The translations under genes were made by a program, and so were the position numbers. Of a stretch of 64,000 nucleotides of DNA, positions 26,047 to 33,218 are shown piece after piece. Location: the NCBI GenBank assembly GCA_003222675.1, contig QHWT01000078.1, positions 12,731 to 76,730 of the forward strand. The letters are read 5' to 3'. The DNA is from Acidobacteriota bacterium. GTDB taxonomy: Bacteria; Acidobacteriota; Vicinamibacteria; Vicinamibacterales; 2-12-FULL-66-21. Within the stretch, counting starts at the first letter, position 1, and each line of letters begins with the position of its first letter. The notes beneath the pieces are model-generated. The model was not told where the DNA came from, searched no databases, and was given only the letters and a program-made list of their open reading frames with translations.

Positions 26047-27452
26047 TCACCGCCATGCGGATTGAACCCATCTCACGGCGGCATCAGGTACTGTGCCCAG
26101 GACAATGGTCAGAACTGTGCTGACCGCGAGGGCGACCTCCATGGCCGGTTGGCGTTGGAAGTTCTCGGAGGCGTCGGAGGGGGCCAGATACATGCGGGCG
26201 ATGATTCGGAGGTAGTAGTAGACCGCGACTACCACATTGACGGCCAGTACCACAGCCAGCCAGCTGGCGCCGTTCGATACGGCCGCAGAAAGCAGCAGCA
26301 CCTTGCCGATGTACCCGCCAAGCGGCGGAACACCCGCAAGCGACAACAGTGCGATCGTCAACGTCAGCGAGAGCGCGGGGGCGCGCTTCCATAGTCCCGC
26401 GAACGCATCGAGCTCAGTCCGCCTTGCGACCTGTTCGACTCGGGCCGCCGCGAAGAATGCGCCGAGATTCATCGGTAGATAGACGATGAGATAGAACAGC
26501 GCAGCCCGCGCAGCAGCGGGATCGGTACCGGACACCGCCACTCCAACGAGGACGTATCCGATTTGCGCGATGCTCGAATACGCAAGCAGTCGTTTCACGT
26601 TTGTCTGACGGAGTGCGGCGAGGTTGCCAACCGTCATCGAAACGGCAGCCAGAGCTTCCATCAACGGACGCCACGCGAACTGCTGCGCTGCAAAGCTCCC
26701 GTGCAGAAGGCGCAGCACGATCGCGACGGCTGCCGCCTTCGGCACGACGGCGATGAATCCGGCGATGGGCGTCGGCGCCCCTTGGTACACGTCTGGCGCC
26801 CACATGTGAAATGGCGCGACGGCCATCTTGAAGGCGAAACCCACGAGCGCAATCGCGAGCGCAAGGACCGCAAGTGAGGCGGTCCGACCATCAGCTGCGA
26901 TCTCGATGTGCGTGGAACCCGTGAGACCGTACAGCAGGCTGAATCCGAACAGCATGATGGCGACCGCCGCCGCCCCGTAGAGGAAGAATTTCAGCGCCGC
27001 TTCGTTCGACTCAGAGACATCAGTCGTGATGCCGACCAGAATCAACGTCGCGATTGCCACGATTTCGAAGGACAGGACGACGAGCGCGATGTCGAGACTG
27101 CCGGCGAGCATCGCGGCCCCGAGCGTCGCGGCGACAATCAAGGCCGGCACGTCCGCTCGATACCTCGCATCACGGAAGTAATCGGCTGATGCCAGCAGCG
27201 TCAACGCGCCCCCAGCAATCGCATAGAACTTCAGGAAGTGTGCTAGTCGATCGAGTCGGTACGTCCCTCAAATACGTTCTGGTCGGACCAGGGCAGCATC
27301 CGGACCGTGAACGCTGCGGCGACGAGCAGGACGGCCGTCGCGCTCACATAAACCGCCCGCGTCGTTCTCGGAGACGTAAACGGCGCCGCAACCAGGAGGA
27401 GCAGGAAGGCGCTTGCGAGCGTCAGTTCGGGAACGATGGCCCAGAGCGGCAC
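26047..27452 (-). CDS. nuoN: NuoN-like antiporter-type subunit (apparent 1-nt frameshift near 27265)
   Basis: The GTG start is 6 nt after the nuoM stop. The N-terminal ~65 aa (PLWAIVPELTLASAF...VFEG) are in one frame. The rest (TYRLDRLAHFLKFYAIAGG...[29 protein letters not shown]...) is in the 385-aa ORF frame. The switch occurs at a GGG/CCC run. Confidence 0.7.
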
Positions 27453-27457
27453 GATCG

Positions 27458-28927
27458 TTACTGACCGAGCAGCGTTCGTGCGCCGCGCTCGACGATTGAG
27501 ATCAGCAGGCCTGGCGCCACTCCAATGAAGACGCTCGCCGCCAACAGCACGCCGACCAGGCCGCGCTCGCGCACACTTAGGTCCGTCGCGGTCAGGCTGC
27601 GGGCCGTCGGGGTATTGAAGAGCGTCTGCTGCAGTGCACGAAGGTACAACGCGGTTGAGATGATCACGCCAAAAGCGGCCGCAGCAGCGGCCCACGGCCA
27701 GCGAGCGACAGCCGCAACGAAGACCTGGAATTCGCCGACAAACCCGGAGAACACCGGCAGGCCGAAGGAGGCGAACGCAAACGCCGTGAGCACACCGGCA
27801 AACACCGGCGTCCGACCCCACAGGCCGCCGAGCTCCATGAGGTCTCGTGTGCCCATTCGCTCTTGGAGCATGCCTACGAGCAGGAACATGCCGCCCGTCA
27901 GCAGGCCGTGGCTGACCATCTGGATTATGGCGCCGTTTACGGCGAGCGTGCGATCGGCAGCCGTCGCCCCGGTCACTGCGAGCGTGGCGCCGAGGAGCAC
28001 GAACCCCATATGGTTGATGCTCGTGTACGCGACGAGCCGCTTGAAGTCACGCTGTGCCATCGCGACGGCCGCGCCGTACACGATCCCGATCACGGCAATC
28101 GCGATGAAGACGCCGGCGAAGCGCTGAAACGCTGCCGGCACGGCGCCAACGGCAATCCGCACGGATCCGTACCCGCCCATCTTCAGCAGGACACCCGCGA
28201 GCATCACGCTGCCCGCGGTCGGTGCCTCGACATGCGCGTCGGGGAGCCAACTGTGTAACGGCACGATCGGCAGCTTCACGCCGAAGCCGAGCGCGAACCC
28301 GAGCAGGACGAGCGCCGCGAATGTTCCGGACCCACTCGCACGGCCAGCTGCGGTGATCGCGTCCAAGTCAAAACTGCGCGGTTCCGTGCGGAAGTACAAG
28401 GCGAGAATCGCGAGCAGCAGCGCGAGGCTGCCGGCACGCGTGTAGAGGAAGAACTTGAGCGCCGCCTCGCGCCGGCCCTCGTGACCCCAAATGCCGATGA
28501 TGAAGTACAAGGGCACGAGCGCCACTTCCCAGAACACGTAAAACAGCAGCAGGTCGCTCGCGAGAAACACGCCGAGCACGCCGGTCTCCATGGTGAGGAA
28601 GAGAAACAGCAGCTCCTTCGTGTCCTCGCCGGACGCAGGCAGGTCGAACAACACCAGCAGCCCGAGGAGCGTCGTCAACAGTACGAGTGGCGCGCTGAGC
28701 CCGTCGAAGCCGAGCGCGTAACTCGCACCGATCGATGGAATCCAGGCAGCCTGCTGCCGGACGGCCGTGCCCGTCTGTGCGAGCTGGACCATCAACAGTG
28801 CGCCGATCACAAAGGTCGTCGCGGCCGCGAGGATTGCAATGAATCGAAGCGACGCGTCGCGCCGACGCGGAAGCAGGAGGATCAGGCCGCCCGCCGCGAA
28901 CGGCAGGAACGTGAGCACCGTCAACAT
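27458..28927 (-). CDS. nuoM: NuoM-like antiporter-type subunit
   Basis: GGAGGTGAG RBS, with the ATG 1 nt after the nuoL stop. The canonical motif is [41 protein letters not shown]. Confidence 0.85.
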   Translation of the reverse strand: [489 protein letters not shown]

Positions 28928-31981: not shown

Positions 31982-32898
31982 GAGGCGAGCATCATCAGGA
32001 TCCCGACGAGAATCACGTTGAAAATGGAGGCGGGAATCAGGACGAGCCAGGCGCCGCGAATGAGTTGCGCCATCGTGAGTCGGCGGAATCTGACGCCAAG
32101 CCACGCCATCATGATCAGGAGCAGCGTGGTCTTGAGCACGAACCAGATCTGCCCAGGCAGCCAAGGCCCGCGCCAGCCGCCGAGAAACAGCAACACACCC
32201 ATCGAAGCAGCAAGAAACCAGACTGCGTAGAGTGACCCGTCTAACAATCTGCGAGCCGCGCCGCGATATTCGACACGCACGTCGACATCACCGCCGACCG
32301 GCAGATCAACCGGGGGACGGTACGTCTGTCCCATGGCCGCGACCAGGTAAATGGCGAGTCCGAGCGGCTGCCACAGCCCAAATGGCACGCGCTGATGAAG
32401 AACGAGCGTGGTGGCCGATAGCGACTCGGCAGCCATCACCGCACCGGTGACAGCGAACCCAAGGGGGATGAGATAGCTCACAAGCTGGGCTCCGGCAAGA
32501 AACGCCGCCTCCGTGCCTGGCCGCGCATTCGCGCCCCACCCCGCCATGAACAGCGCCACGGCCATGACGTCCAGCACGACGAGATAAAAGAAGATACCGA
32601 CGGCGAGCTGCGGCCCTGGCAGCGCGGCGGTCGAGTCGCCAATGGGCACGACGATCGCGCCGAGCCCCACAGCCGTGATCGCCACAGGTGCGGCGCCACG
32701 AAAGAGAACGCGGTCGATCCGCTGGTGACCCGGATCGGGCGCGAACAGCAGGCTGAGGAAGGTTCGGACGCGATCGGCAAGCTGAAGACTGCCACCTTTC
32801 ACGCCCGAGCGCATGACATGATCGACGATGGCAGCCCATGCGGCTCCGCCGACCAGCAGCGCCATGGCAAGAGCCGCATTGGCCAGCGTGACGGTCAT
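31978..32898 (-). CDS. nuoH: divergent NuoH-like subunit
   Basis: 306 aa from an internal ATG overlapping the nuoA stop (ATGA), with ~8 TM helices. Recognisable remnants are GSLQLADRVRTF (compare GLLQPIADGVK), RPPVDLPVGGDVDVRVEYRG (compare RxPFDLPEAESELVxGxxxEYSG) and the C-terminal WFVLKTTLLLIMMAWLGVRFRRLTMAQLIRGAW. Confidence 0.65.
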   Translation of the reverse strand: MTVTLANAALAMALLVGGAAWAAIVDHVMRSGVKGGSLQLADRVRTFLSLLFAPDPGHQRIDRVLFRGAAPVAITAVGLGAIVVPIGDSTAALPGPQLAVGIFFYLVVLDVMAVALFMAGWGANARPGTEAAFLAGAQLVSYLIPLGFAVTGAVMAAESLSATTLVLHQRVPFGLWQPLGLAIYLVAAMGQTYRPPVDLPVGGDVDVRVEYRGAARRLLDGSLYAVWFLAASMGVLLFLGGWRGPWLPGQIWFVLKTTLLLIMMAWLGVRFRRLTMAQLIRGAWLVLIPASIFNVILVGILMMLAS

Positions 32899-33218
32899 AG
32901 ATCGAAGGCGCCGCGCTTCCAGGCGTACACGAGGCCAACGACCAGAATCGCAGCAAACACGAACATGTCCCAGAACGCGACGATTCCGACCTGGCGGTAC
33001 GCGACTGCCCACGGGAACATGTAGATCATTTCCATGTCGAAGGCGAGGAAGAGCAGCGCCACGACCGCATAGCGCACGTCCACCTGAGTCCACGCGCTCT
33101 GACGCGAGCCGTCCGTCCGTTTGTCTCGGGGTCTGGCATTCCGGGAAGCGAGCAGCACCCACACGCTCGTCGTGCCCAGTAGCAGGGCTGCCACGACAAA
33201 CGCAACGCGGTAATCCAT
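32895..33218 (-). CDS. nuoA: NuoA-like subunit
   Basis: 107 aa from an internal ATG with a GAGGAA RBS. VRYAVVALLFLAFDMEMIYMFPWA...LVVGLVYAWKRGAFD matches NuoA/ND3. Confidence 0.75.
   Translation of the reverse strand: MDYRVAFVVAALLLGTTSVWVLLASRNARPRDKRTDGSRQSAWTQVDVRYAVVALLFLAFDMEMIYMFPWAVAYRQVGIVAFWDMFVFAAILVVGLVYAWKRGAFDL

Follow-up and report, generated by a model that had tools for sequence, protein, structure and literature searches.

A probable redox-dead derivative of the complex I membrane arm, with a likely copper connection, in an acidobacterial metal island

Complex I, Mrp, MBH, MBS and NDH-1MS are the main test bed for understanding how charge is coupled over long distances to ion translocation along a membrane arm. 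In complex I, the loop between transmembrane (TM) helices 1 and 2 of NuoA seals the quinone (Q) cavity. The E-channel consists of NuoJ TM3, NuoA TM2, NuoK, and part of NuoH, with TM3 gating the central axis, and the TM3-TM4 loop of ND6 sits at the interface of the two arms (PMC10212512). The Q-like cavity of related complexes encloses other substrates, such as Na+ in Mrp (PMC10212512, the review by Sazanov). Operons encoding the membrane arm only have been described as the "partial NDH-1 operon" of Salinispora, Streptomyces (SM17 and SM18), and Kocuria; partial operon 2 of these actinomycetes has the order nuoA-hypothetical-H-J-K-L-M-N and has been interpreted as an Na+/H+ pump for marine adaptation (PMC3314556, PMC6676996). 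In these genera it accompanies a complete nuo operon (PMC3314556, PMC6676996), which in Salinispora is nuoA-N (PMC3314556). Here, we describe seven consecutive genes, nuoA-H-J-K-L-M-N, at 26047-33218 on the minus strand of a 64-kb stretch of contig QHWT01000078.1 from an Acidobacteriota bacterium (the whole stretch is referred to as the window). The analysis indicates that this set is very probably a distinct, redox-dead derivative of complex I and that the family to which it belongs is likely to be linked to copper.

The seven genes were identified by Pfam search. They encode a NuoA-like protein (32895-33218; 107 amino acids [aa]; Oxidored_q4, 2.7e-23), a divergent NuoH-like protein (31978-32898; 306 aa; NADHdh, 1e-36), a NuoJ-like protein (31253-31981; 242 aa; Oxidored_q3 [PF00499] and HMBD [PF19335]), a NuoK-like protein (30945-31256; 103 aa; Oxidored_q2), and three antiporter-like subunits related to NuoL (28929-30944; 671 aa; Proton_antipo_N/M), NuoM (27458-28927; 489 aa; Proton_antipo_M), and NuoN (26047-27452; Proton_antipo_M), the last of which is interrupted by a frameshift. 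The tight coupling of the genes noted in an initial annotation of this DNA was borne out when every junction was reread from the sequence: nuoA and nuoH share a 4-nucleotide (nt) ATGA overlap, nuoH and nuoJ also overlap at an ATGA, nuoJ and nuoK overlap at a GTGA, the nuoK stop and nuoL start form TGAATG, and a single nucleotide separates the nuoL stop from the nuoM ATG.

To look for the peripheral arm, the whole window and five related loci were searched by tblastn with Escherichia coli NuoB, CD, E, F, G, and I (NC_000913), a NuoB/C/D set of chloroflexal origin, and the degenerate NuoB-D proteins found in relatives (see below). No credible match to NuoB, C, D, E, F, G, or I was obtained in the 64 kb or at the five related loci. 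Both the Q-module (NuoB, C, D, and I) and the electron-input module (NuoE, F, and G) are therefore missing within 64 kb, and Pfam and tblastn agree with the initial annotation that the seven membrane-arm genes stand in canonical order at a locus devoid of the other seven. The set is a complete complex I membrane arm, comprising the E-channel subunits A, H, J, and K and the antiporter-like subunits L, M, and N, with no electron-input or quinone module in the window. A megablast comparison of the cluster with PLSDB plasmids gave no match and thus no sign of a plasmid location.

The set resembles the membrane arm of complex I (NDH-1) in having the same seven subunits in the same gene order and in keeping the Lys/Glu/His residues of the proton channels: E144, K229, H254, K342, and K399 in NuoL; E144, K234, K265, and E407 in NuoM; E133, K217, K247, and K395 in NuoN; and E36 and E72 in NuoK. 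NuoA retains D79 and E81 (E. coli numbering, as for NuoH below) within a DMEMxxM motif, and NuoL, which aligns to residues 66-569 of its E. coli counterpart, has the long C-terminal extension with the final TM helix. All members of the family described below keep these residues of NuoA, NuoK, NuoL, and NuoM together with K217, K247, and K395 of NuoN. When scored against NCBIfam models (in bits, versus the model cut-off), NuoK passes NF004320 (96.7 versus 57), NuoL passes TIGR01974 (434 versus 407.5), and NuoM passes TIGR01972 (477 versus 264); the 385-aa C-terminal open reading frame (ORF) of NuoN reaches 325 against the 333 of TIGR01770. The description of L, M, and N as canonical was accurate insofar as the quoted motifs are present in the translations, but nuoN does not run in one frame.

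In contrast, NuoA (68 versus 163), NuoH (116 versus 305), and NuoJ (77 versus 174) fall short of all NCBIfam Nuo equivalog cut-offs, reaching half the required score or less, and the residues of the Q cavity and E-channel also depart from complex I. The best solved relative of NuoH is E. coli NuoH (7nyh_H, 1e-25). The window protein lacks the TM1-TM2 Q-site loop (ER..Q.R.GPN), reads PVDLPVGGDVDV at the position of the canonical PFDxPEAExEL box, and has lost R148, E157, E220, K233, R293, D295, and K303, while R209, D213, E228, and K274 are retained. Alignment thus confirmed that the N-terminal loop is absent and the acidic box altered, as first noted. The TM1-TM2 loop of NuoA is shortened and has no canonical PYE(C/S)G motif; relatives read PPEHGG instead of PYESG. 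Also unlike complex I, NuoJ carries an HMBD insertion and a Met-rich TM3, and the genes lie in a copper island instead of among housekeeping genes.

The other described members of the superfamily differ from the window set in other ways. Mrp (Mnh/Pha) is likewise a redox-free assembly of antiporter-like and small subunits, and its exchange of a cation for protons is the functional model that we propose for the window set. However, Mrp has no NuoH or NuoA homologue, whereas the cluster encodes both and has neither MrpE/F/G nor further small-subunit genes. Against Mrp models the best scores are 279 bits versus 937 (L) and 168 versus 542 (M), so that the antiporter-like subunits fall far below the Mrp cut-offs while L and M exceed the Nuo ones; the proposed substrate, moreover, is a soft metal ion and not Na+. 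MBH, MBS, Fpo, and 11-subunit NDH-1 share the membrane scaffold and vary the chemistry at its H/B/D end, but they have a functional NuoB/D/I with Fe-S clusters or an NiFe site, whereas these subunits are dead in relatives of the window set and absent from the window. With CopA-type P1B ATPases and CusCBA, the set shares a cytoplasmic HMBD- or HMA-type domain, the Met-based Cu(I) relay that is proposed here, and residence in the same islands. The proteins are nevertheless unrelated, CopA is ATP driven, and CusA is a single resistance-nodulation-division (RND) protein rather than a seven-subunit assembly.

Alignment of the window NuoJ with E. coli NuoJ revealed an insertion of ~100 aa between TM3 and TM4. 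The metal-binding nature that the initial annotation ascribed to this insertion is supported by Pfam, which detects an HMBD (PF19335, 4.2e-14) at aa 105 to 131 (31589-31669, minus strand; CPMHPDVRSREPGQCPKCGM), followed by a His/Met-rich stretch up to TM4. The preceding TM3 and its DPGGSMM motif (31709-31816, minus strand; SMQIMMYVAGMLVMVLFMVMVSPDPGGSMM) are rich in Met by count. The first 95 aa of NuoJ contain 14 Met in the window and 14 to 20 in the family, including the HMBD-less locus L001 and the actinomycete locus L059, compared with 2 to 6 in canonical NuoJ. The means are 17.3 for the family and 4.8 for canonical proteins, so that TM1-3 has 3 to 4 times the canonical Met content, although these statistics, like those on gene context below, treat related sequences as independent. 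Met 17, 20, and 24 of the TM3 segment fall on one helical face. In the family, the new TM3 Met residues recur on one face at i, i+3, and i+7 (plus i+10/11 in relatives), and the series extends from the π-bulge position (Y59) to the conserved DPGGxMM motif at the cytoplasmic end. The Met content of NuoA is 5 to 7%, versus 3%, and its DMEMxxM motif surrounds the two key acidic residues; L, M, and N show no Met enrichment. Given the location of the E-channel, the soft-metal ligands in NuoJ TM3 and NuoA TM2 would sit where the Q-module normally injects charge. The N terminus of NuoJ has no basic residues, the TM1-TM2 loop reads RMLRTMSMVR, and the C terminus reads ARRA; the positive-inside rule and the known position of the ND6 loop predict that the HMBD-bearing TM3-TM4 loop and the C terminus are cytoplasmic.

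A search with NuoH retrieved ~53 relatives of 302 to 311 aa at 38 to 78% identity, after which identity drops to ~30% for canonical NuoH. The 100% match is a hypothetical protein, DMF84_24565, from an Acidobacteria metagenome-assembled genome (MAG). The same gene order was recovered, by looking up contigs and by scanning a single genome for each species, in Acidobacteriota (Terriglobales, Bryobacterales, and others), Chloroflexota (Chloroflexia, Ardenticatenaceae, and many Ktedonobacteria, which account for most carriers in this phylum), and Gemmatimonadota (Gemmatimonadaceae). Conservation of the arrangement across phyla argues against an accident of assembly. Among the carriers found, Reticulibacter mediterranei alone is cultured. 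A search with HMBD-NuoJ returned 435 protein clusters, and nearly all of the top 120 carry both PF19335 and PF00499. The family is widespread and falls within the complex I/Mrp superfamily of multisubunit ion translocators.

The family divides into two sub-types. In the acidobacterial sub-type (the window and the related loci L001-L005, L011, and L062) nuoA abuts nuoH, whereas in all other members an ORF of 440 to 530 aa lies between them. The C-terminal two-thirds of this ORF is NuoD-like (PF00346; Mycobacterium smegmatis NuoD, 8e9g_D, at 5e-33), and the N terminus is NuoB-like (PF01058 in L014, in which each part has its own gene; NdhK, 2.5e-5). This NuoB-D remnant is well conserved, with a mean identity of 57%. 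It lacks the four cysteines of the N2 cluster, the quinone-binding THG is replaced by TAG, and the DY of the tyrosine ligand is replaced by DPL. Loci that carry the remnant have neither a NuoC nor a NuoI gene. The ORF is absent from the window, L001, L004, L011, and L062, and its absence is the mark of a derived, acidobacterial sub-type. The initial claim that there is no peripheral arm accordingly holds for the window's branch but not for the family, most members of which keep a dead NuoB-D cap.

The two sub-types also differ in NuoH and NuoJ. Members with the NuoB-D remnant retain the seven NuoH charges listed above (R148, E157, E220, K233, R293, D295, and K303), whereas the window's sub-type has lost all seven plus the SEL of the PFDxPxAxSEL box; the ER..Q.R.GPN loop is absent from both. 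The NuoJ insertion is found between TM3 and TM4 in every family member. It holds one to five HMBDs at every locus with the remnant, and some members have additional C-terminal HMBDs in NuoJ. The window, L004, L011, and L062 have a single HMBD each, and L001-L003 have none. No canonical nuo locus examined has an HMBD. Within this unnamed HMBD-NuoJ copper-island family, the window has the HMBD insertion, the Met-rich TM1-3, and the copper-gene neighbourhood, and it lacks the NuoB-D fusion.

Neighbor-joining trees of H and of M, built without support values, agree in recovering the family as one clade with the two sub-types as sister groups, the actinomycete locus L059 as sister to the family, and eleven-subunit-type and canonical nuo sequences outside. 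Separation from canonical nuo is thus seen for both subunits examined in this way. Common descent with the actinomycete partial operons is indicated by these trees and by the L059 NuoJ, which has 14 Met in its first 95 aa and the DPGG motif. Like the window, L059 encodes the membrane arm only; unlike the window, it keeps between A and H a 361-aa hypothetical protein, the C terminus of which is homologous to the NuoB-D remnant (hhalign probability 95%), its NuoJ is devoid of an HMBD, and its surroundings show no obvious cus or cop genes. The two sub-types, the sister operon, and the trees together suggest that the clade records a stepwise loss of the Q-module, of which the window would be the end state. 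The existence of actinomycete operons of this kind (PMC3314556, PMC6676996) overturns the initial suggestion that such a module had not been described: membrane-arm-only nuo operons are already known, read as marine adaptation, and it is the copper link that appears to be undescribed. We found no description of the HMBD-NuoJ family, the dead NuoB-D cap, the Met-rich E-channel, or the copper-island association in the open-access literature, which is weak evidence of absence.

In L059 (Actinomadura macrotermitis), the partial nuo operon is followed at 16743-20161 by an MFS transporter, a DUF4396 protein, and a Penicillinase_R/Peptidase_M56 pair; a pair of the latter type also flanks two HMBD-NuoJ clusters. 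At the R. mediterranei locus (L061; GCA_016587455.1), an insertion sequence element (HTH_Tnp_1 and rve transposase; 6360-7522) lies between nuoA and the NuoB-D remnant gene, and nuoN is followed, at a distance of 2 kb, by a multicopper oxidase gene. One Ktedonobacteraceae MAG (TH_ant_mag_38) has two copies of the cluster (L013 and L020), and nuoN of L020 has an internal deletion that removes residues ~75-323. We also considered L029, L031, and L041 (Anaerolineae, Chloroflexota, and Acidobacteriota MAGs) as a third sub-type, defined by a YHS gene and a methyltransferase upstream of nuoA. This was rejected because their NuoH is canonical, a NuoE-like gene is present, and HMBDs are absent. Their layout is nuoA, NuoE-like, canonical nuoH, DinB-like, nuoJ, nuoK, a 206-aa ORF of unknown type, and nuoL-M-N. 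The YHS and methyltransferase genes are upstream in L031 and L041, and a P-type ATPase is also near the cluster in L041.

The copper link rests on gene context as well as on NuoJ and NuoA. In the window, a heavy-metal RND efflux system consisting of cusC (40797-42149; Pfam OEP), cusB (39221-40792; CusB domains), and cusA (35945-39199; ACR_tran), all on the minus strand, lies upstream of the nuo-like genes in the same orientation. The pump reaches the CusA/CzcA family score expected of heavy-metal efflux RND proteins (TIGR00914, 1111 bits versus 701), and the adaptor and outer-membrane factor are adjacent to it. The cluster is therefore codirectional with and downstream of cusCBA and its accessory genes, as originally described. 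Of the related loci, L001-L003 have genes for a multicopper oxidase, CopB, and a cytochrome c directly upstream of nuoA, L004 has cusCBA and a PCYCGC gene, and L011 has CusB/C, MerR, and HMA genes. L062 reproduces the window's layout with all genes intact: cusCBA lies upstream of the cluster, and genes for CDF, MerR, a ~280-aa protein, and HMA follow it.

For a broader comparison, we scanned the flanks of 16 loci with the NuoB-D remnant (150 ORFs) and of 16 canonical nuo loci (96 ORFs). The family flanks contained Methyltransf_11 (5), AhpC/Redoxin (5), P-type ATPase (P1B) with HMA (3), CsoR (3), Peptidase_M50 (3), SCO1 (2), CopY-like with M56 (2), and DsbD (2), whereas the canonical flanks contained SecG, TIM, PGM, and tRNA synthetases and no metal family. 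A metal gene other than that of NuoJ was present at 16 of 26 family loci versus 2 of 27 controls (Fisher P = 3e-5, the significance being inflated by relatedness). A gene for a flavoprotein of ~300 aa (Pyr_redox_2) was observed directly upstream of nuoA in L004 (8697-9593) and L011 (4133-5059) and nearby in L001 (1226-2143) and L016 (~5000); it is absent from the window.

The nuoN gene of the window is split over two frames. The first 63 codons run from 27452 to ~27264, and the remainder (~27264-26047) is open only from 27267, which yields an N-terminal ORF of 69 aa covering the TM1-3 region (stop at 27243-27245) and a core ORF of up to 385 aa. Reading of the sequence and alignment with homologues point to a 1-nt deletion in a G run at 27262-27267 (minus strand): when one G is restored, the translation reads VFEG-TYRLDRLAHFLKF and aligns without gaps to the homologues' VFKGTYRLDPLAHFLKF. 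The identical frameshift is found in L006 and L007, a JGI and an ENA assembly of the same population, and thus in three assemblies in all. Programmed frameshifting was rejected because the site has no slippery heptamer and the homologues are encoded in one frame. The frameshift removes the TM1-3 region only, and the 11-helix core that remains resembles metazoan ND2, which naturally lacks TM1-3. NuoN has been given as having 11 to 14 helices (PMC10212512). Because nuoN is frameshifted, the copy in the window may be impaired.

The loss of the redox parts together with the gain of copper-binding features suggests that the module may be a proton-driven copper exporter. Assembled, the seven proteins might work as an Mrp-type antiporter: driven by the proton motive force, protons would enter by way of the conserved Lys/Glu axis of L, M, and N, and a charge relay along the central axis would power the export of Cu(I), probably also of Ag(I), through the remodelled A/J/K/H E-channel region. 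The cytoplasmic HMBD in the TM3-TM4 loop of NuoJ would capture the metal and pass it to the Met ladder of NuoJ TM3 and the DMEM motif of NuoA. Once released to the periplasm, it could be handled by the Met-rich protein, CusCBA, and, in relatives, the multicopper oxidase. This full mechanism, a proton motive force-driven Cu(I)/Ag(I) exporter feeding CusCBA, is our best reading of the data, at somewhat less than even odds. The initial hypothesis of a redox-less, complex I-derived module for metal or proton handling has been strengthened in that the module has no redox parts and is tied to metal, but metal transport itself is something we infer.

Several observations weigh against this reading. 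Assembly of the seven proteins, metal as what is transported, the outward direction, and a link to proton flow are all points that we infer from comparisons of sequence. Loss of the E-channel glutamates of NuoH could mean a broken rather than a repurposed channel. As L001-L003 have no HMBD, this domain is not strictly required, and the metal-binding domains of P1B ATPases are often regulatory and outside the transport path. Since several relatives adjoin a P1B ATPase, the module does not simply replace CopA. There is also decay in parts of the window's lineage. In addition to the nuoN frameshift in three assemblies, the closest relative, L063-L065 (Logan assemblies SRR30692701, SRR30692716, and SRR30692713; NuoJ 85% identical), has suffered a deletion of nuoA, its nuoH is frameshifted twice within the 5' third, and an inserted HepT/MNT toxin-antitoxin pair separates its nuoJ from nuoK. 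A frameshift also interrupts nuoL in L004/L005, and the second RND pump of the window is disrupted as well. This decay suggests that the module is dispensable and is being lost in parts of the window's lineage while being maintained elsewhere.

Decay of this kind raises the possibility that the set in this genome is a recently inactivated relic, inherited with the metal island and forming no working complex. The disrupted genes listed above are what such a history would leave behind, but six of the seven genes are uninterrupted, and their overlapping or abutting junctions fit translational coupling. Comparison of the window with L063/L065 gave dN/dS values of 0.14 (H), 0.23 (J), 0.01 (K), and 0.37 (L) at dS of 0.2 to 0.4, which argues against a dead relic, and intact copies of the cluster are found in L001, L011, L062, and most relatives. 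The nuoN frameshift, moreover, costs only a region that metazoan ND2 does without. We regard inactivation as unlikely, and it would concern this copy only and not the nature of the family. It is improbable, too, that the module translocates a monovalent cation and protons in the manner of Mrp (Na+/K+/H+ or pH homeostasis), with metal binding by the HMBD acting as a switch and copper as a signal rather than a substrate. The intact proton-channel residues, the missing redox module, the lack of an HMBD in L001-L003, and the often regulatory role of the N-terminal metal-binding domains of P1B ATPases would all accommodate such a translocator, as would the HMBD-less sister operon of actinomycetes, which has been linked to marine (salt) adaptation (PMC3314556, PMC6676996). 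What speaks for a metal path instead is the enrichment of Met inside NuoJ TM1-3 and NuoA TM2, which is shared by the HMBD-less members and the actinomycete clade and fits a soft-metal path better than an Na+/H+ path, and the neighbouring genes, which are copper specific and not osmotic or pH genes.

Two further readings would keep the arm redox driven. A new partner at the site of the Q-module, such as the ~300-aa flavoprotein, a cytochrome c, or a multicopper oxidase, could dock there and drive the arm, and genes for these proteins do accompany nuoA in some members: the flavoprotein directly upstream in L004/L011 and nearby in L001/L016, and the multicopper oxidase, CopB, and cytochrome c ahead of nuoA in L001-L003. 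However, no such partner occurs in the window, and the family as a whole shares none of them. The docking face left vacant is cytoplasmic, on the opposite side from the periplasmic multicopper oxidase and cytochrome c, and in relatives it is occupied by the NuoB-D remnant, which lacks cofactor ligands. All of this makes a redox partner very improbable. Less probable again, and in our judgement close to negligible, is that the set is the membrane half of an ordinary complex I with a split nuo operon and NuoB-I encoded elsewhere in the genome. The portion inspected here is 64 kb, split nuo layouts do exist (L029/L031/L041), and K, L, and M pass Nuo models. Against this stand the failure of A, H, and J at every equivalog cut-off, the loss from NuoH of the TM1-TM2 loop and seven conserved charges, the shortened NuoA loop, the dead NuoB-D subunit that relatives encode for themselves, the position of the clade apart from canonical nuo in both trees, and copper flanks unlike those of canonical loci. 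Salinispora, furthermore, has the sister operon as well as a complete nuoA-N operon (PMC3314556). A distinct, redox-dead derivative of complex I is thus the reading that we retain for the window set.

The neighbours of the cluster were as initially described, with an ICMT-family methyltransferase and two small peptides upstream and a convergent methyltransferase downstream. Between cusA and nuoA, all on the minus strand, lie genes for a PCYCGC-domain protein (35335-35883; Pfam), a YtkA/FixH-like protein (34841-35296; Pfam), a Met-rich secreted protein (34453-34824) that is conserved in all acidobacterial islands of the family, and an ICMT/PEMT-family membrane methyltransferase (33628-34275; PF04191 and PF04140). 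The methyltransferase gene likewise precedes the cluster in L063 (66% identity), and L016 has a copy as well (52%). It is followed by two called genes for small membrane peptides, one of 48 aa with the motif FCCLPMVFMGR (33460-33606) and one of 70 aa that is Met/Gly-rich (GMTGMMGMGMTGGMACCGGMMG; 33227-33439) and stops 8 nt short of the nuoA start. All acidobacterial islands of the family encode small single-TM peptides with a CC..M.F.MR-type motif, and Met/Gly-rich peptides of 65 to 73 aa are found there as well (L001, 2800-2979; L004, 7090-7299; L011, 3129-3326 and 3825-4022; L062, 7367-7540; L009, 3692-3913). These small peptides could be extra subunits or separate copper-binding peptides.

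Downstream of the cluster, the convergent gene on the plus strand (25424-26038) encodes a Methyltransf_11 (UbiE/COQ5-like) S-adenosylmethionine methyltransferase. Between it and a divergent gene for a MerR-family regulator (24440-24907, minus strand) is a strong dyad, ACTTGAGGGTCAAG / CTTGACTCTCAAGT (24922-24974), and this arrangement suggests that the methyltransferase is metal regulated. Methyltransf_11 genes stand beside 5 of 16 related clusters, and copies that are 42 to 44% identical lie upstream of the YHS gene and nuoA in L031 and L041. The downstream metal genes, within 21872-24974 and on the minus strand, further encode a 279-aa protein (23188-24027), an HMA-domain protein (22673-23143, within which the 103-aa called gene spans 22673-22984), a 149-aa protein, and a YHS peptide (21872-21985); the order MerR, ~280-aa protein, HMA is repeated in L062. 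This metal-gene content identifies the window as a metal island. No P-type ATPase motif was found in any frame of the 64 kb. A promoter scan returned a single promoter-like site (43049-43021), which lies ahead of the two small ORFs preceding cusC. Terminator-like matches showed no excess over chance expectation in a scan too weak to define an operon, and no MerR-type dyad was found directly upstream of nuoA.

Other features of the island lie farther from the cluster. A 463-aa ORF (19902-21293, minus strand) without a Pfam match has a signal-like N terminus followed by a His/Glu-rich stretch (QHQHEHAATPEQEHAEGEMPMA) and adjoins a DUF2269-like membrane protein. A second heavy-metal RND operon (48143-53872, minus strand) encodes an outer-membrane factor, an adaptor, and a pump. 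The pump gene is broken, with residues 1-423 (51192-49924) encoded in one frame, residues 521-1064 (49783-48194) in another, and ~100 residues missing. There is also a second MerR regulator elsewhere in the window.

If the proposed mechanism is correct, a third energetic class of bacterial copper/silver exporter would stand beside P1B ATPases and RND pumps, in which a redox-free arm uses proton influx to expel Cu(I) via a Met-lined former E-channel fed by the HMBDs of NuoJ; we put this forward with still more reserve than the mechanism itself. The known repertoire would grow by an inner-membrane Cu(I)/Ag(I) exporter driven by protons, one that is frequent among soil Acidobacteriota and Ktedonobacteria and lies within resistance islands. 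The series from canonical complex I through a dead NuoB-D cap to no cap would then be a stepwise record of the conversion of a respiratory enzyme into a transporter. The "partial nuo operon" of marine actinomycetes would likewise be a metal system, and its reading as marine adaptation would change. A natural arm with an intact proton axis, no redox module, and a metal domain at the former interface of the two arms would also be a simple test system for coupling. Proteins of the family are at present named "NADH-quinone oxidoreductase subunit H," "subunit J," or "hypothetical" in databases. The hundreds of entries that carry the subunit H or J names are very unlikely to be NADH dehydrogenase subunits, and they inflate the metabolic reconstructions that are drawn from metagenomes.

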